A stretch of 34,233 bases of DNA from Kipferlia bialata (Eukaryota), in NCBI GenBank assembly GCA_003568945.1, contig BDIP01000068.1:1-34233 (forward strand). Direction: 5' to 3'. The stretch's first letter is position 1, and each line of letters opens with the position of its first letter. The position numbers and the translations under genes were made by a program. Shown one piece after another: positions 103 through 34,113 of this stretch. The notes under the pieces are model-generated. The model made no database searches and was not told the origin of the DNA. It saw only the letters and a list, made by a program, of their open reading frames with translations.

Positions 103-3100
103 CACTGGTGTTGTGTCTGTCCTTGGCAGACTGTGCAACATGCCATGGCTGCAGGTACAAGTGTATATATCCACATGTATATATATAGATTTGTATATGT
201 CAAGATAATTGATCTGTCTCTTTGGGAGGATAGAGACATCAGCTGCTGCACATTTCTTATGATACTATATGTCCCATATATGTATGTGTATATATAAGTA
301 CACACTGATGTGTTCACTCATCGTAGGGCACAGGAGATGCCGATAGGAGTGGCACATCCTCCCCCTCTTCCACTAGTGGCAGCACTAGCCCACCTGAGTC
401 TGTGTCTAGCACTAGCACCAGCGAGACGCAGTCTGTCTCTGCTGTGGTTGAGTACCCACCTGTACCAATAGGGAGGGGGGATATTCTGAGACTGCTCGAT
501 GAGGGCAGGTAAGAGACATATATGCGTATGCTGTGTAGTTGTTCTCACCATGTAACCATATTATTCTGGGGAGTATATATATATTCTGAAACCTTGTGTA
601 ATCTGTATTATTACTAGTGTCCCGTTTTCTGAATATGGATGCACTCTAGGCCCCGTACCGCTGCCTCTGCTTATGTATATGTATGTTATATATTGTAAGA
701 TATTGGAAGTGTATAATGTATCTAATAATAATAGGCCCCATGCCGCAGCTCTTGCCTTCAGGGCATATGATAATATACACTGTGTTTTAGCCATGCTATT
801 GCGTTCATTGTATTATGTCAATGAGTACACTCACTATAGGCCCCATGCGGCTGCCCTTGCCTATAGGGTGAGACAGTATCAGGACAAGGATAGAAGAGAG
901 AGGGAGGAGGGGGAGGGAGGGGGAGACAACACTACGGAGAGTATCAAGGGAGCGAATGGAGAGAGAGAGAGTGAAGTAGTTGACCCGTCTGACCTCGCAC
1001 TCCTTGGCAGGATACTGTCAGCTGTGGACACACCCTCCTCTGCAGTTGATGCAGCACTGGGGTATCCCACACTGTCACAACAGGCCCAGGCACTGGGTGT
1101 GAGGTATACATTATAGTGTATTCTTATGTGTACATTCATTAGTGTAGTAACAGGCACAGGCACTCGGTGTCAGATAGAGATATTGATGTACTATGTACTC
1201 ATGGATATTTTCCTATATATGTATTCAGACAGTACTAGGTGGCATTTATTCCAAGGTATATATACATATTCCAACCCCAGGCTGCTGACCCCTGGCCTTG
1301 ACTCCCTCCCTGTTAATATGTTTATGTATATTACTACTAGAAAATACATAGATATGTGCATATTCTACCTGTTCTAACCCCAGGCTGCTGACCCTTGGCC
1401 TTGACTCCCTCCCCTCTGGCTGTGACCTGGTACCATCACTCACACAGTGGTTAGATAATGCCTTAGGTATAGAGCGTATGTATATATGTATACATTGAGT
1501 GTTTTTCAAATACTGTATTATGCCCGCACACTATCAGCACCCTTCAAAGGTCCCCTCTCTCGAAGTATAGACGTTATTCTTACACACCCTAGCCAAGCCT
1601 CACCCCACCCCAATACTTCTCCTACATACAATGATACTGATTCCCATATGTTTTGGTACACAAGCATTTAGGTATGCATCAGATAGACTGTATGCCTCAC
1701 CCTAGCCAAGCCACCCTCCCCCGATGCCAGTCCAGTCAAGAGTGAGGAGAAGGAGAGGGAGAGGGAGAGGGAGAGAGAGAGAGTGGGGAGGGCAATGTGT
1801 GTGATGGGTATCAATGGCATACCCGACACCTACTTGCTACCGGTACTTAGGTCTATCCTGAAACTACGCGATTCTAAGGACGATGACAGCAAGAAGCTAC
1901 GCGATGTCAAGGCTGCCCTGCCCCCATCCACTGTGGCGACAGCTGCATACCTCACACTGCTCAAGAAGAGGTATGACAATGTGTATATTGTGTGACATTC
2001 ATACACCACCTTTGCATTTCGTTAGATACACACTATCACTCCACTTTTTACAAGTAGAATTGGACTTCTATTGATACACTCTCTATATATACTAACCCCA
2101 GTTCCCCCTCCACCAGTGCTGCACTGAAGGCACTGGGCGTGGCAGCAGCAAGGTGAGGATATGTATACAATAGAGTATGCATATACACTATACTACATGT
2201 ACAGTATATGTTTATTATTATTGCACTGGGCGTGGCAGCAGCAAGGTAATAGAGTATATAGTAAAATCAGTGTCAATAATGAATAGTATACACGTATTAG
2301 TCTATTGGTGCCATGCATGCACTGAAGGCACTGGGCGTGGCAGCAGGAAGGTGAAGGATGCGTCGCAACTTGCCACTGGCAAGTGGATAGTATTCATCAA
2401 TATTATACTATCTAGATACATGTATTCATACTGACACTAACCCATCAGGGCAGGACAGCGTACTCGCACCCCTACACCCTCAACAGAGGAGGACACGTCC
2501 AAGGAACCAGAAGCATCCACCCCCTCTCCCTCTCCCTCCACACCCCCTGTGCCCAAGAGTCTGTGGCTGAGGGCAGTGCAGCTTGTATATACAAGGTGTG
2601 TGTAACAGTATTCATATATATATATACATATACATATATATATATGAGTGATTGTATATATGCGTTATGCCTAACAGTCTGTGGCTGAGGGCAGTGCAGC
2701 TAGTGTATACTAGGTATAGTATACCCTTACCCATATGGTTGTTCAAGGCCAGGATCGACGCAGTAACACCTTGCACTATCATACATAGAATGCATTTGTG
2801 TTATAGTATATGTTACTCTATGTGGATCACCATCCTTAACATCAGGTGGTCCTTCAAGGCCAGGATCGAGGCAGTACTTACCTATCATTATCATTAGTGT
2901 CTTGGCTAACTATGTATATATATAGTAGTAATCGTAGTATACAGTATATACTTACTTCTAGGTGGTCCTTCAAGGCCAGGATCGAGGCAGTGTGTCTGGA
3001 GTCACTGGACCTGACCTCATTCAAACCAGGTATATATACACTATTATAGTATATACTATATACTGTTTATTCTTTACACTTCCCAGCCAGGGATGTTACG

Positions 3101-5547
3101 ATCCTTCACTCATGGCTGCCACAGTACCATATCTATCATATATAGCACTCATCTTCAGACCACTCCGATGCCTTCCAGTCCACCCTGGACTCTCTCTCTC
3201 TCTCCCTGCCCTTTGAGATACCAAGTACACCCAGTGTACCTAGTATGCCCAACAAGGGTACACCTAGTCAGGGGCATAAGAGGGTATCGATGGGGCCTAG
3301 TCTGCAGCAGACACTGACATCTACACTGGCGGATGCAAAGGAGGTATGGATAGGTGGTACAGTACTATGTAGTATAATGTATAGTAAACATAGTGGTAGG
3401 GTGTGGTATAATAATATAATAATATAATAATATAATAATCCTAGTGTGATAAATTAGAGTCAGGCAAGCACTATCGAGCAACTCTGGCAGATGCCAAGGA
3501 GGTATAGGTGAAGGAGAATAATGTTCACATGTGTATATAGATAGATAGTGTGGCCCAAGGCCGGTGGACCTACTCTATTCTCTGTCTCTTAGATATTTGT
3601 GTTTATATATTGGTCTTCTCACTCTCTAGGCCGGTGGCACTGCCAAGGAGTTCATGGGTGCCCTGCTGATAGCACTCGAGAGGGCAAAGGGGAGGTATAG
3701 GAACTGAATGTATTTGTATATATATATACATATATATACTATTACATAGATTAGTATACATAGACATTTGTATGTATATGGAGAGGGCAAAGGGGAGGTA
3801 ATGTACCTGTGTATACTTAAGTGTATATAGTCATAACGCACCGTCCATATATATATGGATCTATATTACTTTATATTAGTGATTGTTGTACTCACTTTAC
3901 CTGGTCCTCCTTCGAGCGTGCCCTGCGTGTATAGCAGAGTAGTCTATATACAACATCTTACATGTGTATACCAATTGTGTATACCAATTCCAGTTGGGTA
4001 TCCTTCGAGCAGGCCCTGCTAGTGTTGCACACTGTACACATATATGATATATATACATATGTACACTTTCTCATATACTCACTTCAGTTGGGTATCCTTT
4101 GAGCAGGCCCTGCTAGTGCTACACACTGTACACCAACACGTGTCACAGATGGCAGAGACAGGGACACATAGGACTAGGAAGGGAAAGGCCCCTTCCCTCC
4201 CTAGTGTAAAGGTTAGTTCTTGCATATTAATTAGGTTTTGATTATGGGTGTGTATATGTATATATGTGTGTCACAGATGGCAGAGAGAGAGACACATAGG
4301 ACTAGGAAGGGCAAGGGGGGGAACACCTGCCCTTCCCAGTGTGAAGGTATCAGTGTTATACGATACCACATTAATCCTTCTTATCCTCACTGTCAATTTG
4401 AATGAATCCAATCAACTCTATTCTGGTACTGATAACTAACCCTCTAGCTAGACCCCTATGTGTCTGATGCCTGTAAGGACTGGGGCAGACAACAGGTGAC
4501 ACAGTGGCTGCACACATACAAGGCAGCAAAGGAAGCAGCTAGGAATAGGGGTCCAGCCGCCACTGATGGTACCTCTACACCCTCAATTGTTGCCGGCGTC
4601 CCTGTCCCTCTATCCTCCTCCGTCTGGCTGGATGCCCTTGTATCAGCCGTGGCAGACTCTGTTGACTGTCTGTTCTTCTCTCTCCCCTCTGCCTTGTGTG
4701 CACAGAGACCTAGGGTGCTGGCGCTCTCCCTCTCCTTGGCTGGGTCCTGTCTGCCATCGCCATCGCTGCAGGTAGTGTATGTATATGGAGGATATACACT
4801 GTATACCATTATATATAATATATGAATTCATATATCCTGCCTGCCATCACCATCCTTGCAGGTAGTGTATGCATAGTCACTTTACACAATACAATGTAGT
4901 GTATATGCGTTGTGCCTATAGTATATGTCGCTGGTTGTGTCAGCATCCTCACTCTTTGTGTTCTAGAGACAGTGCACTTCAGGCATGGCTAGACGATACA
5001 TATCCAATACTTTCTTTTAGTATATATATGGCTAACCTTAAGGGTTCTAGAGACAGTGTCCTACAGGCCTGGCTGGACCAGTCCACCATCAACACATTTT
5101 TTATGTATATATTTATTAGTCATTTATTATTCTACCTAGCCTCACCCTAAGGGAGCAAGAGATCAAGTCCTTCAGGCCTGGCTAGACCAGTCCACCCTCA
5201 ACACCCTGATAGAGACTGTCACAGAGGGGCAGACAAAGGGTAGACAGATGGTGAAGCCATCGTGCTTGGATCAGGTACAATGTATACATGTGTATATTCA
5301 TGTATATATGTATATATATATGTGTGTGTGTGTTATATTTACACTGTGACAGTGTATATATGTATACCCAACCCCAGGTTGAGTACTCGGCTCTCTCCCA
5401 GCATGTCTACAGATTGTACCTAAAATACATATATACCTATATATGTGGGCTTATCTTCAGGTTGAGTACTCTGCCGTCTCCCAGCATGTATCTAAGGTGG
5501 CATCTGCGGAGAGTCACAGGCACGGCACAAACCTAGGACTGTCGTAG
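103..5547 (+). CDS. Hypothetical multi-exon protein, 5'-partial; low-complexity and helical, function unknown
   Basis: GT-AG exons join in frame: TGVVSVLGRLCNMPWLQ|GTGDADRSG..LLDEGR|PHAAALAYRV..QALGVR|LLTLGLDSLP..|..VPKSLWLRAVQLVYTR|WSFKARIEAVC..|..ADAKE|AGGTAKEF..|SWVSFEQALL..|LDPYVSDAC..SLQ|GARDQVLQAWLDQ..|VEYSAVSQ..LGLS*. Stop TAG is at 5545-5547. One in-frame TAG at 3143-3145 is unresolved. No domain recognised. Confidence 0.65.
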
Positions 5548-5834: not shown

Positions 5835-8800
5835 ATGCCACCATTACTAACCATACTGGCGTTATTGTGCGTCTTAAGCCTCTCCTTGGCCCTGGATACC
5901 GGTGGTTCCCAGCATGTCACGGGAGCCTTGGCTTCTGATGCCTCTTACAGTGGCTACTCCAGCCCTGATCACCCTCTCGCCAATGACAATGGGCTTTTGA
6001 CTGACTCTGTCATGTCTTTCATGGGTCTGAAGGACTCCTCCCCCGCTATTGATGGTGTGCAGACCCTCCAGCCCAGTTCGACTGCCAATGCTCGTGTTGG
6101 CCACTCAGTCTCTGTGGATGGCAACTGGATGGCCATAGGAGCACCGTATGAGGATGGAGACAACGGAAATGTGGGTATATGTGTATCTCTGTCGGTAGAA
6201 GCGTACATACTGATTCCGTGTAGGGGTGGATAGAGGTATTTATTGCGTGTAGGCCATCCCTCATTGCGTGTAGGGTCTTCCTGAGTCTTGCCCTCTCGTG
6301 TCTATTGTCCATCTCCCTCTCACCCCAGGTCTACATCTACTTCAGATCTTTCATCGGTGCCTCCCGTGCCGATGACGTCTGGACCCTACACACCACACTA
6401 TCGGCTGTTGTGATACCCTGTCCCAGCTGTAGTACAGATGCCCCACCGATGTTTGGGTACTCTCTCTCTCTCTCTGGCACCTGGCTTGCTGTGGGAGCTC
6501 CAAAAGGTAACTGCTATAATGGTGTGGACCGTGCGCACGGCGTTCTTCACATGTACCACCTGATTGGTGATCAGTGGGAGTATGATTGCCTGCTAACCGA
6601 GGGGTGTCCTAACAGCAATGACCTGAGACAAGGACACTCTGTATCACTCTTGGCCGACACCCTGCTCTTTGCTGGTTGGCAGAACGTATGGACATCCCAC
6701 TACTCGAATGGGGTTTGGGGTGGCCCGTCGAGAGTTATACAGGGCGGTGGCAGTGATAAGTACAGATACTACTGTGATGTGTCTGTCAGTGATGAATGGG
6801 CTGTGGTGGCATGTGCAGAGTACAATAGGGTCTACACGTTTGATGTCACCAGACTTGAGTGGGTAGTCGGTGACACAGAGGTAGGAGTGGTCTTGGGAAT
6901 CTGTAACCTCTCTGTTGTAAGAGTCTTTAAGTGAGACTCTCCTTCTTGTATATATATAATTATAGTATATACAAATAGTGAGACTGGACACTCATCACCC
7001 TATGGCTATTCATTCAATCCAGAGCAGCATTCCAATGAGGTGGCCATCTTTAGGTGGTGGCCATTATGTCAATGTTGCGCTTGACAGATCCAATGGCGCT
7101 CCTCACATTGTAGTTTCTCAGTCCCACGAGTCCCCTCACAGCGTCAAGGTCCTCTCCTACGAGGAAGAGAACTGGGTCATCAGTCAGGTGTCATTGTATT
7201 ATAATGACATTATCACTGAGTCTATTTTAGTAACACCCATAGACCTACCTCTGACCCCAGGTTCTGGACATTGACAACGTCGAGACTGTCTCTATCCTTG
7301 AGGATGTCATTGCAGTGGGGACGGACCAGAGGGTCACACTGCTCACTCAGGTACACATACTTACTTACAGTCTCGGATTTGTATATATAACATATTCCTC
7401 TTTAGTGATTGTCTCACCTCCAGAACGATGCAGGCGAGTGGGCCACTGACTACTCAGTCACGCCAGAACTCAACTCCTCCATAGGTACTATTGAATAGTG
7501 TTATTTATGTACTTCATAGCCTATCGGAATATATACCGAGGGTGATACTGGCACTGAGCAATTCCTCTGACACTACAGGTGGTATGTCACTCACCCCCGA
7601 TGGTCTCTACGTCGGATCCACCTACTTGAACCTCGACCAACAGGCACATGTCGGAGGGGTGCAGGTACTGCACCTACCATACTTAACAGTATCATGTATT
7701 ATAGATGATGTATATTGACTCAATGTCGGAGGGGTGCAGGTACACTCACTGTATCTGTGACTATGTATGAGATACTGATACTGATACTGATACTGATACT
7801 GATACATGTCGTTGGGGTGCAGGTGCTCTCAACACTCACTGTCACAACTGTTTGACTACTCAAACACCTTAACCTTATGTTACTTAACTTTATGTTACTT
7901 AACCTTATGTCAGAGGGATGCAGGTACTACACCTACCAGCCATTGGTATATTCAACTCAACCTGATCATTCTGCACCCTTATTGCCCAGGTTATGCCTCC
8001 CCCCAACACCCCTGCTCTTTGCATGAGAGGCACAGGAGTAGATGTATCCTTGAGCACTGTTGGTAGTGGCCTGCTACACGCATCCGTGGGAGAGGAGGTA
8101 TGCAGGTCACTCTCCCCCTCTCTCTCTCTCTCTCTCTCTCCCCTCATCCCCTCTCTCACCCAGGTCTCCTCCACCGTCACTCTCCTCACCACCTCCGGCA
8201 CACCCCTTCTGACAGAGATGTCTGTCCTGGCAGTGTATGAGGGTGTAAAGACGGTGTGTGTGTGGGGAGGGGCCAGCACATACACCTGTGCAATGACATT
8301 CACAGACACAGACACAGCAGAGTATGAGGTACACTCAATTGGACTGCCCCCCGTCCTACGTGTTCCATTCCTTTTATAGCAACACCCCCCCCCGCGCGGC
8401 CCTTCTCCCGTATTGCCTATCTCTGTCCTTCTTCGTCCCCCCCCCTCCCCCCCGCCTTTCCTCAACCCTTGTTTCACATTCAGGTTCTAGTAGGCTGTGT
8501 CAGTAACAAGGAGATATCCTTCCAGACTGGCGATGTCTATGTTGTTCCCGGTGCGTTTGATGCCATGGAGACACAGGTATATGCACAAACGCATGTTGTG
8601 TACATACTACTACTGTGTGATCTGCCTCCCCTCCCCCCCCCCCTTCACATACATCTTGTCCGTTACAGTGTCCACCTTGACCCCAGACCCACTACGACAC
8701 GTCCCTCTCTGGCCTTGCCCAGACCGTTCCTGAGGTTGTGACAACAGACACACCTGTCACACTCAAGATGGAGGTATTTGTGTATTGTATGCATACGTTA

Positions 8801-11800
8801 CGTTGGGAACACTAATACTATGTATTTTGCAGTGACACATATGTGGAGTTGATCAGTACATATGTACTATGTATTTTGCAGTGGCTCATATGTGGAGTTG
8901 ATCAGTATTCTAAGAAATCTCATATCCTCTATATCTCTCTCCCGGTGGGGACCCCATTCACCCTCTCACCACTTAGATCTACGACATCAAGGGCAACCGC
9001 ATCCTAACCAGGCCTGACACTGATTCCCTTCAGTTCCTGACAGCTGTCTACAGCCCTGTCTCCCCCACCATCCCAGTCTGGTCTGGCACTGCAGCATGGT
9101 CTCACCCAGACAAGGCATACGTGGTGGGAGGAGGTATGTCACTTGTGTGTATGCAGTACTAAAGGGTATTTGTAGTCTACGCAGACAGCATATACGTGGC
9201 GGGAGGGGAAGAGTAACTATATAGCTGTTTGTATGAAACCAGGAGTCGCACAGCCCCCCCCCCCCACAGTCAATTCTCTTCTTGCCAACCTAGACCCTCT
9301 CTTAACCCCAGGTTTCTCCCCCATCAGTCTGCGCTCCATTGGCACCCACTCTGTGACATTCACAGATGCTGGTGATGCGACATCCACTGTCTCCATGGTG
9401 TTCCCAGTTGCCCAGGGCGTGCCCTCCACAGTCACATCCACCATCACCCCCCTCTCTGCCTCTGCCGGTGACACTGTCTCTGTCACTGTAGTGGCCAAGG
9501 ATAGGGCGGGGATAGAGATTGGCACTGGGGTGAGCGCCAAGATCTCCCTCTCCAGCCCTGACCCCGCCACTCCCTCTGTCCCATACACAGACGGAGTGGG
9601 GTTCCAGACATCGCTCTCTCTCCCAACTGCCGCAGGTTAGTATTGCTGGCCGTGTATCGTAGAGAATGTACCTCTGTATCAATACTTACTATTGTTTATG
9701 CATCAGGACCCCAGACAGTGTGTGTCGTGTTTGCAGGGGACGGAGTGGTAGGAGAGCCAGTCCTCTACATGGACTTCTATGTGTTTGCAGGTACCCACAC
9801 TGTATATATGTATATATCATATATCCATACATTTGAACTATTGCCTCACAGCTTGTTTCCTGTATGCATATTATTATCCCAGGGACTCCTCAGGAAGTGA
9901 CGTTTGATGGGTCTCTAGCTGTGAGGGCCTTAGACAGCAGTGAGACCCTGCTCCTCTCCTTCACCCTCACAGACGTGTACGGCAACGAGTACTACACAGG
10001 CACCAACACATACCTCTACGTCGACTCTGAGGGCGACGCCAGCAAGGCGTTGTGTGCATATGCCGATGGGTCCTACCAGATGTCCAGATCCCTTGGTGCC
10101 CTGTCTGCAGGGTCCCATGCAGTGACTGTGGGGTGGGGGGAGACGGGGAGTGTGACTGGGACCCTTGAGGTTGGGAATCCCCTGTCGGCATCGGCTAGCA
10201 CTCTCTCTCTCAGACCCGCAGCACCTCAGGTCTTGCAACAGGTGAGAGTAGTTATATACTTATTTCTATACCTATAGTGTCACCAACAGGTACACATGCA
10301 ATATATTGTTGTGATATTGGTATAGTGTATTGAAAAACCGTATTGATACATAATACTATATTCATTATCTGGGTATCTGACTCATACTTACCCCTCATAT
10401 GCCCCAGCCTCACCGTAGGTCTCTGCGCTTGTCTCTCTCTTCGACATCGAGTCCACTGTGTACCCTACTGCTGTGTCTGTCTCTGTGGAGTATGAGACAT
10501 CGACGGCGTCCTGTCTCTACAGCATTGGGGACCATGCGTATGTGTGCAGCATGACATTCAGAGACTTTGACTCCTCCTCCTACACGGTGCGTTCTATTGT
10601 AATGTCGTTGTTCTGGCCTGGGGTATTCTGCAATATAATGTCTCTATAGTCTCTATATGTGTTTATTTCAGGTTCGAGTGGCGCCGTGCATTGGTGCTGA
10701 CCCCCTTGACTTTCTGACTGGCTCAGTGTCCATGGCATCATCAGGATACGATGCCTACCAGACACAGGTGCCAGGATGGAGTATATAGTCATTCATTCTA
10801 TAATATCTAATCACTCACTTTCAGCTGTACTATTTGCAGCACTCTCTCGACACTGTGTCCTCACCGGTTGTGGCAGGGATCCCATTCAGGATACTGGTCA
10901 AGGTATGTAACAGTATGCAGCCCCCCTCTCTTGTCACATTCCTATACCACCTCAGACTGCCAAGCATGGTGTCTGTTCCTTGATATATATCTATATATAC
11001 ATATATCTCTCTGACTGCCAGGTGTTTGATGAGCATGGCCGTCAGATCGAGTCAGACCTTGGTCAGACTACCTTCACAGCTTCTGTCTCATCTCGCATAG
11101 CGACTGAGGATGCAGTGTGGTCTGGACCTGTGTATTGGTCAGACAGTGACACGGCATACAAGTCTGGTGAGAGCCTTACCCATTAGTGCATCAGGTCTAT
11201 AGTATGCGAGTATCCCCTAACCCCAGCGCTGATATCGATCCATGACATCACAACTCTTGGCTCTACCTATGATGTTGCATTCATAGACTCCTCTGGCACT
11301 GTTGACTCAGTGGCCATGGACTTTTCTATCCTGCCAGGCGCCCCCTTCCCTGCTACGTCATCTGCCACCAACCTAGATGGGCCTGTTGGTGCTACGCAGA
11401 CGGTCACTGTGGTGGTGAGGGATCTGCAGGGCAACGAGATATCAGACGTCTCCGCCAGGATGGCCTATGGGACCCCGGACCCTCTCTCCCCCACGGCCTC
11501 ATACACCAGTGGGGTGGGGTACCAGCAGGTGGTGACGCTACCCACAGAGGTAGGCACCCACACCCTGTTTGTGTCACTCTCCGGTGGGTATCTCGACACC
11601 CCAACTGCCATATCCTTTGAGAGTACCACCACCATGGGCCCTGCTACCACCATGCTTGTGTCCAGTCAGTTTGGTATCCTTGGCCTCCCCTCCACCGTAT
11701 ACTTCAGCCTTACTGACTCCTATGGGAACCCAGACACCACCCAGCACTCCGCCTTCTTCTATCTCGATGCCCTGGGATACAGCTCCAGCGTCGAGTGTGA

Positions 11801-22005: not shown

Positions 22006-22044
<39 letters not shown>

Positions 22045-23083
22045 AAGAGAGGCAGACGACAATATGTCCTCACAAGTGTATACAGTGTGTACCTTAGTGG
22101 TCCTGGTGGATGTGTTGCTCCTGATGCTGTCGACAAAGTCCTCGTTGTTGAGGTAGGCATTCACAACCTGGCGTAAGTCTCAAACTATACGTAACACAAC
22201 TAAGTATCGAGGGTCAGTGTATCTATGGAAACATAACTAAATATCCTGTTAGGGTTGTATTACCATACCTCCGACTCGTTGTGGAAGAACCCCTCGAACC
22301 TGTCCCTGGCCCAGACCAGACAGTGGGTGATGTTGTTGGGGAAGTTGTGGATGAGGCAGGCAGGCTCCTCCTTCTCCTCTAGAAGTGAGTATATAAAGGG
22401 TGTAGAGGGGGAGAGAGAGAGAGAGAGAGGAAGAGAGTACGTACGGGGGTCTGGCTGGGCACCGTAGTTCTCGGTGATGTTGGGGAAGACAGGTGTGGTG
22501 TTGGCCTGGGGGCCTGGGGGTTAGTAACCGCAAGATATACTATCACGGATATCAGTGATACATACCAAGATCATGAGGATATAGATACATATACCACATG
22601 CCGTACCGAGTGTGCCGCTGTCGAGCATGGGGAGTCCGTGCCTGATGGCCTTCTCGTCACAGTACCTGGGGGGTGAGATACAAATAGCATGCGCAGTAAG
22701 AAACAATTGCATCGGATTCTTGTGATGGTACTTATACAGATAGCCTTCTCCTCACAGACGGGGGGGTTGAACATAGTCAACACATATACTAATACTTCAC
22801 AATAATATAAATGTATCATACCTCCTAGCGTTGACGTTGTCGAGGCCTGTCACGATGTAGGAGAGTGATGACCAGAAGGCATGGTCGAGGACATCCTCGG
22901 TCTCAGGGCACACCCTGGGGGTGAGGGTATTGATTGTGACATATATACAGCACATAAGCAGGAGGTGGCTATAGTGTACGATTAGAACTATACACAGGTA
23001 TATATATACCCCACCTGATGGCCATTGACTGGCAGTTGAACTCAGGGTTCATCCTGGAGACAGCACCAACAGCGGCCTCAGAC
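19144..23083 (-). CDS. UBA1: Ubiquitin-activating enzyme E1 (UBA1-like), C-terminal half only, about 17 exons
   Basis: [34 protein letters not shown], catalytic Cys in [90 protein letters not shown], and a UFD-like C-terminus ending [10 protein letters not shown]. Confidence 0.93.
20641..21430 (-). repeat. Two acceptor-side echo arrays in UBA1 introns (YAG|ATTGAGGACGAGGAGGGCAATG x3-4; CAG|ATGGACCCCATGAC x5)
   Basis: First array near 20641, 20741, 20856 and degenerate 20943. Second array near 21088, 21178, 21251, 21324 and 21408. Confidence 0.9.
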
Positions 23084-24204: not shown

Positions 24205-24573
24205 CTACTGTTGTGGTGACCCAGGGTATCCATGGTACTTGCCACTCCCTAGGCCTGGGTCGAGGTCTATGGCGTTGCCCAGTGCTGCCTGGGCCCCACC
24301 CATACCATCTATACCATCTATGGGCACTATGCCACCCATGCATGGCCCCATGCTGGATAGAGGGTCCATGGGTGAGGCAAGGGGGTCGTCAAAGAGACCA
24401 GGCCACTCCTCTCCCCCGTTGTCTCCATCGCCCTCGGGCACTATCTGGGGTTATATACATATACTGTATCTATGTTAGGTATATGTCAGTGTCATGGTCC
24501 CCCTACCTCCACCTTTGGGTCCAGGGCATTGAGCCTGTCCTCATAGAAGGCAATGAGGGCATCGGGGTGGGTT
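24205..24573 (-). CDS. Last two exons of a 5'-truncated gene; possible HP1-like chromo-shadow domain end plus an acidic/Gly-rich tail
   Basis: Exon 24573-24507 reads THPDALIAFYEDRLNALDPKVE, resembling HP1 CPQIVIAFYEERL. It joins in frame by GT-AG to exon 24444-24205 (IVPEGDGD...GSPQQ*). Upstream exons fall in or beyond the gap. Confidence 0.5.
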
Positions 24574-24676
24574 CTGAGGGTGAGGAGGGAGAGAGAGGGG
24601 GGGGGGGGATGTAGAGAGAGAGAGAGAGAGAGAGAGGCAATGAGAGCACATAGGGGGGGGGGGGGGGGTCCCCCCA

Positions 24677-24908
24677 NNNNNNNNNNNNNNNNNNNNNNNN
24701 NNNNNNNNNNNNNNNNNNNNNNNNNNNNNNNNNNNNNNNNNNNNNNNNNNNNNNNNNNNNNNNNNNNNNNNNNNNNNNNNNNNNNNNNNNNNNNNNNNNN
24801 NNNNNNNNNNNNNNNNNNNNNNNNNNNNNNNNNNNNNNNNNNNNNNNNNNNNNNNNNNNNNNNNNNNNNNNNNNNNNNNNNNNNNNNNNNNNNNNNNNNN
24901 NNNNNNNN
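24677..24908. other. Assembly gap (232 N) flanked by G/C homopolymer-rich sequence
   Basis: Run of N. It must hide the 5' ends of two divergent genes. Confidence 1.
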
Positions 24909-25004
24909 CCCTCCCCCAACCCCTTCCCCCCCCCCCCCCCCCTCCCCCCACTCTACCCCTTATGTCTCTATCCTACTCTCTTTGTGTCAGTATTCTCACC
25001 CCAG

Positions 25005-28000
25005 GCTGGCAGCTCACCCAGCTCCCAGAGTACGCAGAGGCCAAGGTGGTCAGAACAAGGTAGACAGTGGGTATGTACTCTCTCTCCCTCTCTCCCTCTC
25101 ACTCTCTCTCTCTATATATATATCACTTGGTATATAATATATATATATAATGATGGGGTCCGCTGCTGAAGTTGTGTGCTCACTCTCTCACTCTCTCTCT
25201 ACGCAGGTTTATGTATGTAACATCCATATACATACAATAACATGCAAAGATCTGGATGTCATCTGCTCTGCCTATGAGTCTCTCTCTCTCTCTCTGTGTA
25301 TACATTCATATTTCTCTCACTTCACATACTGACCCTAGGGACCAGGATGTCATCTCCGCTGCCACCATTGTGGTTGATGTCGGTGGGGTATATGACCACG
25401 AAGCAAGGAGGTAAGAGAAGTGGGAGTATCCATGTACACTAACTATTGACTGTAGCTTTAATATACTATACATATTGTGGTTGGTGTGGGTGGGGTATAT
25501 GACCACGAGGCCAGGAGGTAAGGATACTGATACACATTCAGTTCATTATTATCATACTTATCATATACTTATATACTTACTCATGTGTATACCTCTTTAT
25601 GACCACGAGGCCAGGAGGTGAGTATCTCAATACTTCCATGGGTATTTAGTATTATTGGCATATCATTCATTTTTGACCACTACTAGTAGGCAACAACCAT
25701 GTTTTACTATATACTGGATAGATGTACTCACCCTGTAGGTATGACCACCACATGAAGACATGCAACGAGACCATGCCCGGATACGACATCAAGCTGAGGT
25801 ATCCGGTATGCACTACATATACATATACTACATCATCTACTGATGGATATATATATATCATGTGTCTGGATACGACATCAAGCTGAGGTACGTATTGGTG
25901 TAGTGAATAGTACAATGGAGTGTTAGTGATCCAATCCCTCACACTGTAGCAGCGCCGGCATGGTGTACAAGCACTATGGCCACCAGATCATTGACATACT
26001 GTGTGCATACATGGACACACCTGTCACACTCACAGAGACACAGAGGGAGTGGGTATACCAGACGGTGTATAAGGTACTAGTATGTTATACTACTACCAGT
26101 TAAAATACACGTATACTGTTGGTGAGTGAGTGGGTGTATCAGAAAGTGTATAAGGTCTATATGTAGACTCTTTATGTAGTAAGGTATTAAGATTAATATT
26201 CCATGTATATACTATATAATTAGAGAAATGTATGCTATATTGCGTATCAACCGTATTGACCCCAGGGCTATGTCATGGCCTGTGACGGACAGGACACGGG
26301 GGAGGCAAAGGTATATATAGACAGATAGGATGTACATGTACAATTTTAAGTATAAGAGTTATGCATATCGGGGTATATATACTCCGGACACTGGTGAGGC
26401 AAATGTTCAGAGAGATATGTAGATATGTCAGGTATATATATTCAAGACACCGGAGGGAGAGGTATGGGAGATCGTTTATGTAGGATAAAACGATATTCTT
26501 ACACTAGGTTGTGAATGCTGATGGGACAGAGGATTGTCGGAAAGTGAACTTGTGCCTTACAGTATATACTCTTTGTGTGTATATTAGTTTTCATATTCTA
26601 ACACTAGGTTTTGAATGCCGATGGGACTGAGGATGGTCTGACAGCATATTTGTATTTTCAGTGTGTATGTTATATTAGAGGGAGTACACTTATGCTAGGT
26701 TGTGAATGCCGATGGGACCGAGGATGGACTGACTGTGAGATACAGTGACAGCACGGGGATGGGGTCCACAATAGGTATGTATCATGTTATATATACATAT
26801 TGTACTTCATACATATTCAGGACTATACAATGGTAGAACGGGGATGGGATGTACAATAGGTACACACTTGGCATATACCAAATACACGGTACATCCAGCA
26901 ACCACTCGATGCATTAATATATACATTATACACTGATTCTGACCTCCAGCCAACCTGAGGCCCCAGTGGAATGAGTCATTCTCATTCGACAGCAGGTGTG
27001 GATGTACTGTTGTATTGGCACCAGTGTCCAAATATCCTCTCATAATGTATTAGTTAAAATATATCATACTTATGGAGACATTCTCGTTCGACAGCAGGTT
27101 TGTATACAGTACCGGTATATCTGTGTAGTGTCGGTATTTTTGTTTGTGTACCATTATTACCTCGGTTCCCTGCTGTGGCGTAGCCCTATTCCACATGAAT
27201 GTGGTGTACAATCATTGTATGTGTCATATAGTCATTACCATTAATGTTTAGTATTTATGTATATGCCCTCACCCTCTAGGTTCCCCGAGGCCATGACCAC
27301 CGTTATACGTATGCAGTGTACTTATAGTATATATGAACGTTCCTTGCACATTAGTGTTCATTACTTACTTCAGGTTCCCCGAGGCCATGGCCACAGCCGG
27401 TGCACACTTCAAGGCACATGTTACGCGGTAAGAGATATATAACATAGAATACAGGATGTGCATTCGGTATCGTTGTACAACACATCCATAGAATATCAAG
27501 TGTGAACAGTACCACTGATATGGGCACATTACTAGTGACAGGTTGTCTCTTAGACTCTCCTCTAGTGTGTCGTGCTTACCCCCAGCGTTGTGAAGCACCG
27601 TCTCCCAGCCTATGACATAGTCAAGACAGCCATGGACAACAGGTATATATGTGTATACATTGATGGAAGTATATTTATATGTAGGTAGTAAATGATATAT
27701 ATATATGTTGCCACAATACATATGACAATGCCAAGACAGCCATAGACAACAGGTATATTCATATACACTGGTATTCATTGATGTATATCCGATGGACCAC
27801 AGGTGGGATACTGCTAGGGGGGTAGTTAGGTATAGAAGAAAAGATACAGTATTCCTTGACACCTAGGCGCACCACCCTGCCCTGGGGTGAGGGCCGTGTG
27901 CTTGTGATAGACACTGGGGTGCCAGCTGACAGGATGGTCTACGAGATGGAGGAGGAGAAGGGTATGATGATATATATATATATATATATATATACTAGTA

Positions 28001-28927
28001 TGTATACGTATGTAGTTATGTCAATGGTCTACGAGATGGAGGAGGAGAAGGGTATGAAGTAGTATATATACTAGTATATATACATACTAATATGTGTATG
28101 TATGTGTAGATGTGTCTGTTGACAGGATGGTCTACGAGATGGAGGGTATGTGGTACATATTGATACACACTACTCCATCTGACTGTCACAGGGCTTGTGG
28201 TGTACATTGTGATGCTGGGAGTACGTCTCAATTATGTGTTGACGTATGTGTGCATATACCACATGCCTTGTCCTGTACAATGTGATGCCTCGCTATGTAT
28301 ATGTGTATCTCTTAGTGTACTGCATCCATCTAACCCACAGGCCTTGTGCTGTACATTGTGATGCCCAGGTCTGATGGTACATGGGGGGTCAAGGCAGTCA
28401 ACAGAGAGGGGTCCATGGCCCTCAGGTATAGTGTATTAGTGAAAATATGTAAAACCTCAGACCATGCAATTCTATCTCTCTGTATGTATTTCAATGGCAT
28501 CTCACCCCCTGCCCCTGCCCCTGCCTGTTGGCTAGTATATATCTACTATGAGTTACTATATAATACTATTAGATAGCTAGTATTACTGACTATTCATTGG
28601 CCGTAGTAGGCTCCTGCCCTCTGCCTAGTTGCACTGACTTACTCCTATATATATGAGTATTATTGTATATAGCGCTGTGTCATACAAGTCTGACCCCAGG
28701 AAGCCCCTGCCCTCTGCGTGGGGTGGTCTGAGACACCAGGACCTGGATAAGGCAACAGGTGAATATGTATATATATACTAATACGTTGAATATGGAATAT
28801 ATGTATGCCTTACCCCCCAGGCCTGACTGGGTGTGTGTTTGTGCACAAGGCCTTGTTCACAGGTGCCGCCAGTGACAGGCAGACGGCACTGGACATGGCC
28901 AGAATGGCATACGAGAACATGGAGTAG
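25005..28927 (+). CDS. MYG1: MYG1 (UPF0160) exonuclease; first exon missing in the gap
   Basis: WQLTQLPEYAEAKVVRTR|DQDVISAATIVVDVGGVYDHEARR|YDHH..IKLS|SAGMVYKHYG, FPEAM, VLYIVMPRSDGTWGVKAV, RKPLPSAWGGLR, GCVFVHKALFTG..ALDMARMA. TAG at 28925-28927. Confidence 0.93.
26500..26740 (+). repeat. Acceptor-side echo array in MYG1 (CTAG|GTTGTGAATGCYGATGGGACNGAGGAT-like x3)
   Basis: Copies start at 26508, 26608 and 26699 (the true exon). Confidence 0.9.
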
Positions 28928-29082
28928 AAAAATAGAAAGATGTATCATGATCGTGCTACATATTATAGGTATAGCTTTTGGATATACTGGCACTACAGAT
29001 CGCCAGAACTCACCAATGCCTCTGATATCCAACCACCCTCATCAACAGGGATGTATCAACGCAACGTTTAATTGAATAGATT

Positions 29083-30209
29083 CTATTCAGTTTCTTCCGT
29101 TTTTCTCATCCCCTCCACCATCTTCCTCACTAGTGCCTCTGATATCCTGCCACCCTCCCTGGCCACACACTCAGAGGACAGCTGGGCAGCAAGTCTAGGG
29201 ATGAGAATAGTACTATACACATATATAGTACATTGTACATATACACTCCCTGGCCACACACTCAGAGAAGAGCCGAGCAGTCTAGAGAAAGTAGGGTAAT
29301 AGACAATATATAATGGTTTATACACCCCACCTTGGGCCAGGACACCCCATCTCAGCTGATATAAATATATGAATATACCTGTGTCTGTGTATTCTATATA
29401 TACGGTATTCTGTACAATATACCTTGGGTCTGGGCACCCCATCTCAGCTGCCAGTCTAGAGGCATGCAGCCTCATGTGGCCCTGGGGGTGAGGGGTGTAT
29501 ATTTGAAATAGTAGTTATCAAGGCAGACAAAATTATGAAGAACACCTCAGAGCTATCTTGACTGATAAAACGATGCATATAATACTTGCTGATTACCTGG
29601 CTAATACCCTTTCCAGCCAGTGCGAGTACAGCAGACATGTTCTGGGACAGTATATACACACATTCGGTATAAAGACATATGTAGTACTTGCTGATTACCT
29701 GACTTATGCCTTTACCCGCTAAGGCTAGTACCGCTGCCATGTTCTGGGCCAGACCATATACAAACATATATCATACACTCAATAACACAGTACATATATG
29801 AATCATATATACCTGACTGATACCCTTGCCAGCTAGGGCCAGCACTGCAGACATGTTCTGGGCCAGACCAACAGCTGCCATGACACGGCCTAGGATAGAG
29901 GACCTAGGGGTTAGAGATAAGACTAAAAATAGATATATGTGTGTTAATACTATTACAAGTATGAAATGTCATCAGCTGCCATGACACGGCCTAGGATGCA
30001 TAATCCAATAGTCAGATGGAAGAGATACTTGCTCATGTATTTTAACTATTCCCAAACTACTATATTTGTGAGACCAAGGATAGAGGGGGATATGAGTAAA
30101 AGTACTCAAACTCATACTAATACCAACACGTGTCCCTGGATCCCCCCAAAGTATGGGTCATGGTCACTGTCTACAATATTGATGCATGATCATTATATAT
30201 ACAAATACC

Positions 30210-30243
<34 letters not shown>

Positions 30244-33200
30244 TGTGCATACCTGGACGCCCCATCAAAGTATGTCCCATCCTCTCCGTCCACTAGCATG
30301 GACAGGGCACAGGCAGCACGGGCATGTCTAAAGGGTTAGAGAGTTTATAAGTACATACTATGTACTATCACCACTATACATATAGTTGTATGATGCAGAA
30401 GTGTATATCATAGACATAGCACAGGCATTATATGGGCAGAAAGAGAGATATACCTAGTTGTGAGCCCCCCCACCACCCCTATAGGCACAGCCACCCTACA
30501 TCTGACACGGAGGCCATATACATCAGGGCCTGGGGGTGAGGGGGGTATGATACATAACACATATCTCAGAAAACAATACACCTGATACGGAGGGCATGGG
30601 TGTCAGGGCCTAGGGGTGAGTATATTCTACATATATATATATATATATATATATAGTTATATCGTGGGTGGCAGTGTCAGTATCAATAGAGGAGAGGGGT
30701 CAGGGGCCAGGGTAACTGGATGGTGTGTGATGCAATACGCATCAGCACGCACCCACCCTGGTCTGGCATGGGCACATACTTACGGCACAGGCTATCTAAT
30801 ACAAACCCTGAAACATACTTACATATATCATCATACTATAATCACCCACCTTGTCCTGGCATAGGCACTCTCTTCACCCAGGAGAGTGGTCTAACCTGTC
30901 CATCCTTGCAGGATAGAGTGTGGTTGCATGCCTCGATGGCCCTGGTGTCCTGACAATGTTAGTATACCTAAATGACCAATTCTAGTGGACTTATGCTTAT
31001 ACGCTCTCTCTTAGATATGTATCAATGGAAATGTGTATATACAGTAGTTGCCTCGATGGCCCTAGTGTCCTGATAGTGTAAGGAAACTCATTGATCACAC
31101 ATGTAGGTCTCTAGGTGTCCTACCAGATTTCAATAATCATCACGATCTGTGTATGTATATATACACCATATCAGCATACCTGACCAGTGGCAAGGGCCAC
31201 AGCAGACACACCGTTCATGATACCCTGGGGGTAAGGACAAAGGTAAACTACAAGCAACGCAATAAACATACAATAGCTACCTTGTTATGCGTGACTGCCC
31301 TTGCTGGGTGCCTAACCCCTAATGAGTACACCCTCTCCACCCTATCCAACAGTGCAATGGCAGAGGGCATGTCACTACACCTCTTGCACTCAATTAGAGA
31401 GGCAGGGGTGAGGAGACACTCGGCCACAGCTAACCTGGCATCAGTGCAATTCTACACGATTGATGTGTAGTATTTACGCGATAGATATACCTTGGCCCAG
31501 CTAGATGGACTAAGCTGGCATTCCCTGTTGCCCCCTTCCCTATGCCAGGTGTGAAGGGACCTGCCTCAGCAGCAGAAGGGGGGGCAAGGTTGGACACAAT
31601 TCTAGGAGGGTTAGGAAGTACACGAATTTGGATCGCGTAGCTTACACAGCTACTACATGTGTGCATATATACCATAAGAATATGTGAATGTCTATACCTG
31701 GCCACTGCCTGTGTCTCTGGGAACAGACCCATGCAGTCTATAGGTATAAAAATATATGTATGTACTAACAATACACATGTACATATATAGATACCATACC
31801 TAGCCACTGCCTGTGTCCCTGGGAACACACCCTCCAACAGGTGTGTATATATATGTATATATGCCATATATACATTCAGTATATGAATATATATATACAC
31901 ACGGTACCTGGCCACTGCCTGTGTCCCTGAGAACATACCCTCCAACAGAGGGGCACAGGCCTCGGCAACGCCTAAAGTAAGGGAGGAGAGTATACTTAGT
32001 ATATTTAAAGAGAACTGCAATATACGAGAATGGTATATAATACAGGGGGGGACAGGCCTCGGCAACACCTACACTCAGCAATACGTTCTAGAAAGCATAA
32101 GTCAAGCAACTGGAGGAGAGAAATGTACTATGTCCTAATATGGGGGCACAGGCCTCGGCCACACCTAAAGTAAGGGAGGTAAGTATATGTATCAGTTGAT
32201 AGTAGAACTCAGGATACTATCATATGTGAGGAGGGTATAGTATGGGGGCACAGGCCTCGGCAACGCCTGAGGTCAGAGATATGGGTGGAGGATATACATG
32301 ACACATAGATAACCATGTATCGGACCAAAGAGGTGTCATACACTCTCTAATATGGAGTATAGTCGTATTCTTCAGTTCCTGCACCTGCTGCTATGTTGGC
32401 ACCCATTGCATCACAGACATCAATGTCGAGTGAGACCAGTATGTACATGGGTACATCCACAGACTCGGGTACAGTGGCATCTGTGTCTATATCAGTGTCA
32501 CCACCCACATCCTCTGGAGCATCTGTGTCTATACCCTCCATACCCTCCATACCCTCTGGACACCACTCTGTGTCTGGGGGTAGAAGGGTGCCCCTGACCC
32601 GCACCAGACCTCCACCCTGCAGAATGAGAGAATGGTTGGCATATATACACAAGAGCTTTTACACAGTAATCACATAAGTCAATGTATAGTAGGTAACCAC
32701 CACCATGTACAGTGAGACAGTGTATGCATAGAGTAGTATACTAACCCTCTCATACAATCTGGGATGCATCCTCCTGCACACCCTGTCCATGTCTACATAT
32801 ACATATGTATGTATATGTATGCATAGAGGAGTACATATCAGTATACTAACCCTTTCATATAACCTTGTATGCATTCTTCTGCACACCCTGTCCATGTCTG
32901 CATATGATGTGTCAAGGGTATCTGACACAGACTCAGGGGTCAAGGGGGTGCTGGGTGGGGACACTAGCTGCACCATGCCAGTCACAAGGGTGGGGCCTAT
33001 TAATTAGTCATCAATATAGATAGACATAGACACAAGTGGATCACTATAGTCATATGGATTAATACTGCTCTTTGCCAGTCGCAAGGGTGGGACTGGGGCT
33101 AACACATAAGTCAATATCTCACATATTGAGATATGTATCCCAGTCTTCTAAACCCAATTATAGCTATTAGTTCTCTTGCTGCACCACGCCAGGGTGACAC

Positions 33201-34113
33201 CTCAGAGGAAAGCACAAACCAACATATCGTGTGGCATACCTGCCGCTGTTCTGAACCCACCCTCTACATATCCCCTTAATACTGTGATATACACATGCTC
33301 AAGTGACCCTATAAATATCACTAATGCATACTCTAAAGTAGAGTAGAACACAATAGAAAATATATATACCTGCCGCTGTTCTGAACCCCCCCTCGACCCT
33401 AGCTATCTTGGCCCCCAGTGAACAGGCAGCCACTACGCTGGGTTCCTCAGTGACCATGGGCACAACAAGCTAGTGTTACATTATTACTTATATATATACA
33501 TATATAGAGACAGAGAGAGAGAGAGAGTATAGAAGTAGCTACAATGCTGGGTTCCTCAGTGACCATGGGCACCACTAGCTACAGGGTAAGGGAGCCACTG
33601 GTGCAGTAGACTTGATATATACAAGAGTAGATTCCAGTAGTTTTCAAAGACTTCTTTCAGTGGATAATATATATGTGTCAATCTCTACAACTTTCCACCC
33701 TGAGGAAATATATATGTTCGGTAAGGGAGCCCACTGGTGCAGCTGCAATACTGATAGAATACAAGATTAACACAGCATTAATTGCCATGTGTAGTAGTTT
33801 GTTCAGAGTATACTCTGTGTAATGCTAAATATGTGTCAGTGTACATCTTACTTTCACCCTGAGACAACATAGAGATGATGACACACTGATACTTATCTAT
33901 ATGTAAAATGAGAGTATTCATACCTCGTTTCCATCCACTATGAAGTTTGGTGCCACTCCCATCGAAAGGAAGAAAGACAAACATATACATATATTCATAC
34001 TGTATAAAGATGTGGTAAGAAACAAGAATACATAACATTACCTCATTTCCATCCACTATAAAGTTTGGTGCCACCCCCATTGGAAGGGAGAAGGTGCCAA
34101 TCACATTCTCAAC
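29083..34113 (-). CDS. mvaA: Class II (bacterial/archaeal-type) HMG-CoA reductase, 5'-partial
   Basis: VENVIGTFSLPMGVAPNF, VPMVTEEPSVVAA, DAMGAN, RIVSNL, RAVTHNK|GIMNGVSAVALATGQ|DTRAIEA, PIGVVGG, AVGLAQN..LALAGKGISQ|GHMRLH (catalytic His). TAG at 29083-29085. Confidence 0.93.
29597..29860 (-). repeat. Donor-side echo array in HMGR (QNM.AVLALAGKGISQ|GT x3)
   Basis: Exon end 29813-29860; copies 29699-29755 and 29597-29644. Confidence 0.95.
31697..32275 (-). repeat. 64-nt HMGR exon (31908-31971) flanked by three acceptor echoes and two donor echoes
   Basis: AG|GYGTKGCCGAGGCCTGT near 32070, 32165 and 32268; ACACAGGCAGTGGCYAG|GTA near 31800 and 31698. Confidence 0.9.

Follow-up and report, generated by a model that had tools for sequence, protein, structure and literature searches.

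Genes of the window and the copies in their introns

The window, that is, the whole 34,233-nucleotide stretch of a Kipferlia bialata contig that was analyzed, carries an LRR gene and the genes listed below. In four of them (gene 1, UBA1, MYG1 and HMGR), which form our sample from this one contig, introns hold copies of the ends of neighboring exons, hereafter called echoes.

103..5547, + strand: gene 1, 3' part, 14 exons modeled on a stop-free frame with GT-AG introns
5924..16990, + strand: receptor-like kinase gene, echo-poor; approximate model, not a clean ORF, with a kinase Pfam match
19144..23082, - strand: UBA1 (E1) gene, 17 exons modeled; the model equals database protein P0001 (Kipferlia bialata) and has Pfam support
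25005..28928, + strand: MYG1 gene, 3' part, 13 exons; RNA contig of 925 nt at depth 222, Pfam PF03690
29083..34113, - strand: class II HMG-CoA reductase (HMGR), 14 exons modeled; RNA contig of 1590 nt (exons 6-14), database protein P0003, PF00368

No Pfam family scored above the cut-off for the three exons of gene 1 that were searched. The kinase and LRR gene models are approximate and served for intron and echo counts only.

At an alignment score of at least 14, which was our detection threshold, we found 62 echoes (14-58 nt) in 34 of the 54 introns of the four genes: 16 in gene 1 (in 8 of its 13 introns), 12 in UBA1, 16 in MYG1 and 18 in HMGR. This is well above chance, as 44 of 108 pairs of an intron and an adjacent exon reach that score, versus 3 of 2878 non-adjacent control pairs. 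An alternative detector (threshold 13, with a low-complexity filter that drops long echoes) also returned 62 echoes, with a donor-side silent bias, described below, of 6.6 versus 7.3, and the echo pattern was unchanged between thresholds 13 and 14. Nearly all repeats found in introns are echo-linked.

The sequence-only reading had called this architecture window-wide, which was an overstatement: the LRR gene has none and the kinase gene next to none (0 of 6 and 2 of 38 introns in their approximate models, or 2 of 44 together, versus 34 of 54; Fisher p 6e-10), so the pattern does not extend across the window. Its list of carriers was right for gene 1, UBA1, MYG1 and HMGR and partly so for the kinase gene (median intron 80 nt), which contributes two introns and another with a tandem unit; the chromo-shadow-like gene drops out, having a single 14-nt repeat that falls under the threshold.

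7723-7739, 7804-7822, 7907-7938 and 9179-9206, + strand: kinase-gene donor echoes, from repeat detection
8816-8907, + strand: 49-nt tandem unit, which adds one further kinase intron

The layout of the echoes is regular. Most of them (53 of 62) end no more than 3 nt from a junction and lie in the same orientation as the exon, which points to junction-spanning duplication, and none of the 62 reaches the far exon end, i.e., there are no whole-exon copies. In all 34 echo-bearing introns, including the 10 of 10 with both types, copies of the preceding exon's end (donor echoes) come before copies of the following exon's start (acceptor echoes), just as proposed. Each unit of about 100 nt consists of a 14-58-nt exon end, a splice signal and a spacer (45-137 nt, none under minimal-intron size). 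Units measure 70-158 nt, with a median of 100 nt that equals the usual intron length, the spacing of about 70-120 nt given earlier is exceeded at its upper end, and the upper bound of the claimed copy length (about 15-85 nt) is not reached. Unit length modulo 3 is 20/26/16 (n=62), by which retention of units in frame is rejected. Together, the units make up 6151 of the 12,368 intron bases of the four genes, about half; intron length grows by some 87 nt per echo (rho 0.86), the median being 301 nt for introns with echoes versus 100 nt for those without. In these genes, the suggestion that intron length owes much to junction-spanning duplication is therefore supported. GT-starting exons are not enriched among acceptor echoes (6/22 vs 5/32). 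Homology between the intron part of a unit and the true intron end was detected for 2 of 24 donor echoes and 4 of 29 acceptor echoes; whole-unit homology of the human F7 intron 7 type is thus the exception, and simple local duplication does not account for the unrelated intron parts.

Gene 1:
735..763, + strand: acceptor echo of exon start 840-868, four silent changes and one replacement
2223..2350, + strand: donor echoes at 2223-2245 and 2318-2350, each followed by GT; their source exon ends at 2152
2668..2713, + strand: donor echo of 2550-2595, third-position mismatches 5/5
2736..2875, + strand: two acceptor echoes of exon start 2962; the copy closer to the exon matches it at 30/30 positions, yet carries a different branch point and AG of its own
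3994..4039, + strand: acceptor echo of 4088-4133, 3/3 changes silent
4835..4875, + strand: donor echo of 4745-4771, 4/4 silent, sharing 13/14 intron-start bases with the true donor
4977..5095, + strand: two acceptor echoes of the exon starting at 5152
UBA1:
20455..20489, - strand: donor-side echo without GT, third-position mismatches 5/5
20740..20965, - strand: three acceptor echoes of exon start 20665, with greater decay farther from the exon
21147..21431, - strand: four acceptor echoes of exon start 21101, three of them whole 73-nt tandem units that are 88% identical
MYG1:
25474..25617, + strand: two donor echoes of the exon ending at 25410, with two silent differences from the exon common to both
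26508..26642, + strand: two acceptor echoes, each with its branch point and AG intact, that precede used acceptor 26699
HMGR:
29566..29756, - strand: two donor echoes (29597-29650, 29699-29756) of exon 29813-29903, in intron 12, with 8 and 10 silent changes and one replacement each
30577..30609, - strand: acceptor echo, a 28-nt micro-exon in database model P0003 that the RNA contig skips
31698..31840, - strand: two donor echoes of the exon ending at 31908
32042..32266, - strand: three acceptor echoes of exon start 31971
32719..32800, - strand: intron 3 donor echo of 32851-32905, six silent changes
33240..33267, - strand: donor echo of 33370-33397, 2/2 silent
33526..33578, - strand: acceptor echo whose branch point and AG fit the consensus, which those of modeled true acceptor 33469 do not
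33924..33974, - strand: donor echo of 34042-34092

The whole-unit echoes in 21147..21431 are ordinary young duplicates. The pairs first singled out by eye proved exact: 2676-2713 with 2558-2595 (CTT/CTA, GTA/GTG, ACA/ACT), 3994-4039 with 4088-4133 (three silent changes, in two codons), 33240 with 33370 (2/2 silent) and 33924-33962 with 34042-34080 (the echo's last 39 nt, 3/3 silent).

The echo copies are real and skipped in the main mRNA where checked, a partial confirmation that covers 24910-31830 (gene 1, UBA1 and HMGR exons 1-5 lie outside). Three DNA contigs built from the reads of run X1 match 24956-27961, 28054-30202 and 30252-30619 with 0 differences and contain 21 of the 25 echoes of 24910-31830 plus their exon part. 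The pattern is therefore present in raw reads, and an assembly artefact is rejected for this region. Since X1 may be the source sample, the comparison tests the assembly and not other strains; the DNA run has no second letter (allele) at any position of 24910-31830. Run records name none as RNA, and we treated run X2 as such because its contigs join GT..AG. These spliced contigs skip the 24 echoes in the 20 introns checked (MYG1 and HMGR exons 6-14), as seen directly at four joints and by record coordinates or length arithmetic at the remainder. None of the 16 MYG1 echoes is retained in the main RNA contig, and no echo letters occur in the RNA contigs at depth 222 (MYG1) and 10.7 (HMGR), contigs being prone to drop rare forms. 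In MYG1 and HMGR exons 6-14, the echo pseudo-sites are thus unused in the main mRNA, as in F7.

Silent bias and splice signals of the echoes

A neutral copy of a constrained exon by itself gives a silent bias of up to 2:1, so only the donor side is anomalous. Donor-echo mismatches fall 13/15/72 on the three codon positions (n=100), with a pS of 0.324 and a pN of 0.044, i.e., a ratio of 7.3 (p 2.5e-7 against the 2:1 ceiling; CI 4.0-12.6 by intron bootstrap, with a ratio of 2 or less in 0/5000). Taken singly, the four genes give ratios of 5-13.5, and the introns checked against RNA give 8.1; in a null simulation, where the third-position share is 0.45 +/- 0.055, 0/2000 runs reach the donor value of 0.72. 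In contrast, acceptor echoes show a pS/pN of 2.4 (CI 1.5-3.7), which fits the neutral expectation overall; their third-position share is 42/91 versus 72/100 (p 0.0004), and mismatches between acceptor echoes are spread 9/10/11. Acceptor echoes with an intact branch point and AG reach a ratio of 3.6-4.5 (p ~0.045), and degenerate ones 1.8. The non-uniformity across codon positions and the constraint on the exonic part that had been put forward for all echoes consequently hold for donor echoes, the constraint weakly for intact acceptor echoes, and neither for the acceptor side as a whole.

Chance alignments are flat by codon position (365/384/360), and base composition or detector bias is rejected as the source of the silent excess. 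Same-chromosome gene conversion or repeat collapse is discarded by argument, a ratio above 2 being out of reach, and the lack of a net shift between exon and echo in codon preference (26 vs 29) or GC (30 vs 22, in the threshold-13 set) dismisses these as directional causes. Two compositional trends do exist: third-position A rises from 5% at exon starts to 21% at exon ends, and third-position transversions place the purine in the exon 23:10 (p 0.035, among three tests of direction). Donor conservation peaks near the splice site, with 8/339 mismatches at positions 1+2 within 20 nt. Stop codons are absent from the 288 codons of donor echoes and the 287 of acceptor echoes, a weak observation given that ~1-2 are expected on each side, and 13 of 31 donor-side replacements have a BLOSUM62 score of at least 0.

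Splice signals are often retained. GT follows 22 of 27 donor echoes, and a branch point with AG accompanies 17 of 29 acceptor echoes versus 30 of 527 other intronic AGs, most of these acceptor signals differing in sequence from the true site. A branch-point remnant is not enriched before donor echoes (6/27 vs 89/495). Exon and intron parts are uncoupled both ways: intron homology is missing in 22 of 24 donor cases, and HMGR introns 3 and 12 show the opposite, near-identical intron parts beside heavy silent divergence (p 0.0006 for each, by Fisher's test for intron 3). The two echoes of intron 12 share 14/14 intron-start bases, 11 of the 14 mismatches between them are at third positions, and silent divergence at exon 12 is 0.56-0.61; the intron part of 32719..32800, in intron 3, has one substitution and one 10-nt indel over ~27 nt. 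Across echoes, silent divergence spans 0 to 0.6, and one exon has three distinct versions.

Some donor echoes retain the ancestral amino acid. In 32719..32800, the family-consensus Pro stands where the exon has Thr, and for four HMGR donor-echo replacements it is the echo that carries the residue of the 119 homologs compared (echo vs exon: P 83/T 1, A 111/S 7, G 57/D 2, L 57/M 1). For seven of the eight other HMGR donor-echo replacements, the commoner residue is in the exon.

Origin of the donor echoes

We tentatively interpret donor echoes as leftovers of highly diverged working alleles, produced by off-register, exon-confined recombination together with junction-spanning duplication. A unit of ~100 nt is added beside a junction; in MYG1 and HMGR exons 6-14, the outermost donor and acceptor are used, hence the protein is unchanged. 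Some units are plain same-chromosome tandem duplicates with even decay, as in UBA1 introns 9 and 14 and the degenerate acceptor echoes. If allelic exons are alignable and allelic introns are not, recombination may end off-register at the junction, leaving the partner's exon end plus a piece of intron, or the exon copy alone may later be replaced. Either route would give the exon and its echo independent histories as protein-coding sequence, the echo having become non-coding only recently. Loss of NHEJ and Dmc1 in place of Rad51A might favor such events; PMC8516963 describes metamonads without NHEJ and, in fornicates, loss of Rad51A and two Dmc1, and PMC6719624 the stabilization of mismatched joints by Dmc1. 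In the hypervariable fungus Schizophyllum commune, crossovers are reported in conserved exons (PMC4209137). This reading draws support from the donor-side silent bias, the homolog residues retained in four HMGR donor-echo replacements, the uncoupling of exon and intron parts, the echo linkage of nearly all intron repeats, spacers that never fall under minimal-intron size, and splice signals that resemble separate working junctions. Against it, the silent diversity required among donors, ~0.3 (0.32 uncorrected, with HMGR exon 12 higher still), lies above the 0.20 that PMC4576712 reports as extreme. The predicted diverged allele was not seen, P0001 and P0003 each having one member sequence, and two metagenome scans gave no close relative among the matches listed (67 pattern matches for UBA1, none a relative; for HMGR, among the matches listed, only 29-35% identical homologs). 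The donor/acceptor asymmetry is not predicted either, a difficulty partly eased by the excess in intact acceptor echoes and the third-position A gradient, and symmetry would be expected where purines stand 23:10; the unenriched branch-point remnants and the exon-favoring HMGR replacements also count against it.

Several of these features would follow if the echo were a frozen same-chromosome duplicate and silent sites in the exon's last 40 nt outpaced neutral DNA, driven by splice-enhancer selection against a rival donor or by selection-filtered local hypermutation. This would account for the donor-side bias, the A gradient, the purine excess and HMGR intron 3, where the intron part is young, the echo retains the consensus Pro and the exon has A at 6/7 codon-level differences. 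We nevertheless regard it as unlikely, for the exon branch would require ~8 times the neutral rate with no net codon-preference or GC shift, the third-position mismatches between the intron 12 echoes would imply two full recodings with reversions, and loss of GT would be an easy cure for a harmful rival donor, yet most echoes retain it. If echoes were instead selected in place for their amino acids and splice site, as spare exon ends rarely swapped into mRNA via an unrecognised direct-repeat-guided step, Kipferlia introns would be selected alternative junctions and not junk. The conservation peak beside the donor, the retained signals, a unit length matching the usual intron and, weakly, the lack of stops fit such use; it is made improbable by the echo-free RNA contigs (from which rare forms are dropped), the non-conservative donor-side replacements and HMGR intron 3, which pairs a young intron part with an old-looking exon part. 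Canonical swapping is rejected, swap sites occurring in 3 of 62 echoes, both donor-side ones lacking a branch point, and so are recursive splice sites, since 0 of 23 donor echoes end in a branch point and AG.

Paralogs or homeologs from an old polyploidy or hybridisation, mostly lost since, could be the source of silent changes close to saturation in a conserved protein, such as those of HMGR exon 12. We hold this to be very unlikely, as silent divergence values from 0 to 0.6 with three versions at one exon do not form two classes, and no second K. bialata UBA1 or HMGR was found in protein searches, which were limited by word and length. That ordinary tandem duplication and neutral decay, in the style of the F7 intron 7 minisatellite, explain everything is very improbable: the degenerate acceptor echoes, the even acceptor echo-echo mismatches and the whole-unit arrays of UBA1 suit it well, but for donor echoes it is rejected by simulation and bootstrap, and unrelated spacers beside identical exon parts are left unexplained.

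Implications and comparison with known systems

If the allelic reading is right, one genome would store pieces of other alleles within its introns, and the allelic diversity and sex of a free-living relative of Giardia would be readable from a single assembly, one with ~125,000 introns (PMC5874029). Half of the intron length of conserved genes would then stem from recombination errors, not transposons, a point relevant to whether Kipferlia gene structure mirrors that of the ancestral fornicate. Nature has also set up in the echoes an experiment on how splice sites are chosen: acceptors that fit the consensus are passed over for one farther downstream, and the spliceosome of this lineage is reduced (87/174 proteins; PMC6679479). 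Gene prediction is misled by them: the database HMGR model includes one as a micro-exon, which the RNA contig contradicts.

Recursive splice sites, nested introns and mutually exclusive duplicated exons all feature intact splice signals within introns, and share with Kipferlia inner GT...AG pairs of usual intron size. Unlike mutually exclusive exons, the echoes include no whole-exon copies, rarely have swap sites and are not included in RNA contigs. Junction-spanning repeats are known, but we found none in the literature at such density or with protein-level constraint. The closest likeness in units with silent pseudo splice sites is human F7 intron 7, whose 37-bp VNTR has its first unit across the exon-intron boundary; downstream donor copies are reported to be intact and unused, and the most upstream donor wins (PMC1557585). 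F7 is a single locus with near-identical whole units, whereas in Kipferlia 63% of introns in four genes are affected, with donor and acceptor types, ~100-nt units, mostly unrelated spacers and a protein-coding divergence pattern.

Intron gain via tandem or internal gene duplication (Rogers 1989; Gao and Lynch 2009; potato RdRp, PMC4974935) likewise involves local duplication of exon and intron with splice signals from the parental junction. In Kipferlia, an existing intron grows, the old mRNA junction is kept and no new intron arises, and the order is the reverse of the AGGT (Rogers) model, donor copies preceding acceptor copies in 34/34 introns. Introners similarly reshape introns on a genome scale in a protist (PMC9860276, whose main text does not name Kipferlia); they are families of similar introns at unrelated sites, and an echo, as far as intron-versus-exon controls in the window reach, resembles its own neighboring exon only. 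Schizophyllum commune offers the exon-limited recombination between silently diverged alleles that our preferred explanation assumes; its abstracts do not mention junction duplicates, and its hyperdiversity is measured, whereas that of Kipferlia is inferred and would lie at a higher level (PMC4209137, PMC4576712).

Exon echoes and intron length in four genes

Across gene 1, UBA1, MYG1 and the gene for a class II HMG-CoA reductase (HMGR), we modeled 54 GT-AG introns, and in 53 of the 54 true acceptors a branch-point motif lies 2-7 nt before the AG. The database UBA1 protein, P0001, which like the HMGR protein P0003 is labeled Kipferlia bialata, is identical to our model once one donor is corrected. 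Run X2, treated as RNA since its contigs join GT..AG, yielded spliced contigs that show four MYG1 joints directly, while its record coordinates agree with the modeled exon lengths at each of the 12 MYG1 introns and at HMGR introns 6-13 (278 fits five exons, 144 and 151 two each, with further fits of 59 and 45). Where checked, the main mRNA uses the outermost splice sites. At 30577-30609 and 32851-32890 (- strand), the database HMGR model, P0003, departs from ours: it takes an acceptor echo (30577-30609) as a 28-nt micro-exon, which is contradicted by an RNA contig, and also truncates two exons; against 119 homologs, our model scores 253 bits versus 240 for P0003. At acceptors 33469 and 32996, which are modeled, and 26699, which is RNA-supported, the branch-point consensus match is poorer than, or no better than, that of upstream echo acceptors.

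An ungapped search that ignores codon phase (+1/-1 scoring, score at least 14) found echoes, that is, intronic copies of the neighboring exon's end, in 34 of the 54 introns. They number 62, with 27 on the donor side and 35 on the acceptor side. Scoring pairs numbered 44 of 108 for adjacent introns and exons versus 3 of 2878 in the control. The exon parts of echoes span 14-58 nt, the whole units (exon part, splice signal and spacer) 70-158 nt (median 100) and the spacers 45-137 nt, with donor copies always upstream of acceptor copies. Junction units have been added, some as plain tandem duplicates. Median intron length is 301 with echoes versus 100 without, and 6151 of the 12368 intron bases in the four genes lie in such units. 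The sequence-only reading had proposed a window-wide architecture with duplication as a major source of intron length. Of the six genes modeled, four confirm both the layout and what it adds to intron length, but the pattern is nearly absent from the kinase gene (echoes in 2 of 38 introns) and the LRR gene (0 of 6), whose models are approximate. Its four codon examples all proved exact. Contigs from X1, a DNA run that may be the source sample, match three long pieces of the window with 0 differences and cover 21 of 25 echoes and their exon parts in the aligned stretch (24910-31830).

Other features of the window
5924-16990: large receptor-like Ser/Thr/Tyr kinase gene, introns short and echo-poor
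6200-6275: ~12-nt motif ending in AG, three short copies at 21-29 nt spacing, first kinase intron
17451-18771: small LRR-like gene, introns short and echo-poor
23322-23371: tandem array of perfect 9-nt repeats, upstream of the modeled UBA1 part
24507-24572, - strand: short exon, head-to-head with MYG1
24677-24908: 232-N gap between the chromo-shadow-like exon and MYG1, seemingly too short for both 5' ends
32477-32533, - strand: in-frame 42-nt internal repeat and short tandem in the acidic insertion of HMGR (exon 4)

The motif copies in the first kinase intron are unrelated to exon ends, and one likely GC-AG intron lies near 12586. P0001 starts farther upstream than the modeled UBA1 part, near 23690. 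The short exon at 24507-24572, which we take to resemble a chromo-shadow C-terminus, belongs to a gene in which a single weak repeat of 14 nt recurs after 87 nt. HMGR (29083-34113) is of class II, and its best other matches do not exceed 38% identity, those with a name being prokaryotic; if it arrived by lateral transfer, all its 13 or more introns would be later gains. In the four modeled genes, A occupies 5% of third positions over the first 20 nt of exons but 21% over the last 20. Compared with exon middles, AG is depleted at exon starts (0.050 vs 0.083) and GT at exon ends (0.038 vs 0.061), and these gradients suggest an exon-definition code.

Codon-position divergence of donor and acceptor echoes

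Uniform mismatches are the wrong null, because next to an exon that tolerates silent changes alone, a neutral copy already allows silent sites to differ up to twice as fast. Acceptor echoes overall fit this 2:1 null, with mismatches of 24/25/42 by codon position, a silent-to-replacement ratio (pS/pN) of 2.4 and a third-position share of 0.462 (simulated, 0.463); echo-echo mismatches are 9/10/11. The ratio is 3.6 (p 0.046) in acceptor echoes with intact branch point and AG (n=17) and 1.8 in degenerate ones (n=18). Donor echoes depart from the null: their mismatches are 13/15/72 (pS 0.324, pN 0.044, ratio 7.3, p 2.5e-7). Gene by gene, the ratio is 10.0, 13.5 (one echo), 5.3 and 8.5; it is 5.6 without the two strongest introns and 4.0-12.6 in an intron bootstrap. 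Across 318 chance alignments, mismatches are spread evenly over codon positions. Third-position mismatches outnumber the others at 14 of 22 donor junctions, are fewer at 4 and tie at 4; within 20 nt of the donor, they affect 44/162 sites, versus 8/339 at positions 1+2. The silent bias noted from sequence exceeds what neutrality allows on the donor side alone.

Donor echoes display a protein-coding divergence pattern that is uncoupled from the adjoining intron part. HMGR exon 12 and its two echoes code for the same 18-residue stretch apart from one residue in each echo, with 10 and 8 silent differences from the exon and five positions carrying three different codons, while the first 14 intron bases are identical between the echoes. 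In the HMGR intron 3 echo, six silent changes fall in the exon part, against one substitution and one indel over ~27 nt of intron part (Fisher p 0.0006). The opposite pattern is commoner, 22-30 nt of identical exon part lying beside unrelated intron parts in which a consensus splice site is still present. Donor-echo replacements overall are not conservative. Among the 12 in HMGR, the echo carries the clear consensus of the 119 homologs in 4 and a marginally more frequent residue in 1. In the other 7 the exon's residue is the more frequent; three of these are at ragged ends of the alignment, and one change is common to two echoes. At acceptor-echo replacements, the echo's residue is the more frequent one in 2 of 20.

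Origin of the donor bias and known systems

For the donor silent bias we lean, at somewhat less than even confidence, toward duplication combined with exchange with highly diverged alleles, because exon/intron uncoupling would be expected from recombination between partners homologous in exons only. Schizophyllum crossovers prefer conserved exons (PMC4209137), metamonads lack NHEJ, fornicates have lost Rad51A and possess two Dmc1 (PMC8516963), and Dmc1 stabilizes mismatched joints (PMC6719624). Against allele exchange, no diverged allele was seen among the X1 DNA contigs, protein searches and metagenome matches listed, more silent diversity would be required than the 0.20 of PMC4576712, and the more constrained third-position composition at exon starts accounts for just part of the donor/acceptor asymmetry (p 0.0004).

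A fast-evolving exon end is an unlikely source of the bias, demanding in simulation an exon branch ~8 times faster. We consider it distinctly improbable that echoes are used in place at low level, and a little more so that their donors were paralogs since lost. Purely neutral duplication would account for the acceptor echoes, which overall sit at the 2:1 null, but is very improbable for the donor side, since 0 of 2000 simulations reach its third-position share of 0.72.

The echoes can also be compared with recursive splicing, nested introns and mutually exclusive exons. Among the titles and abstract openings listed by searches that covered few subscription journals, none describes the echo architecture. 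The main text of the K. bialata genome paper, which counts 124,912 introns, lacks "duplicat" and uses "repeat" in other senses only (PMC5874029); on Kipferlia, the relevant parts of PMC6679479 cover only spliceosomal proteins and snRNA searches, and the main text of PMC9860276 does not name Kipferlia bialata. Intron gain by tandem duplication, as outlined in PMC4974935, differs from echoes in geometry. The nearest known junction-spanning repeat with silent donors is the F7 intron 7 minisatellite (PMC1557585).
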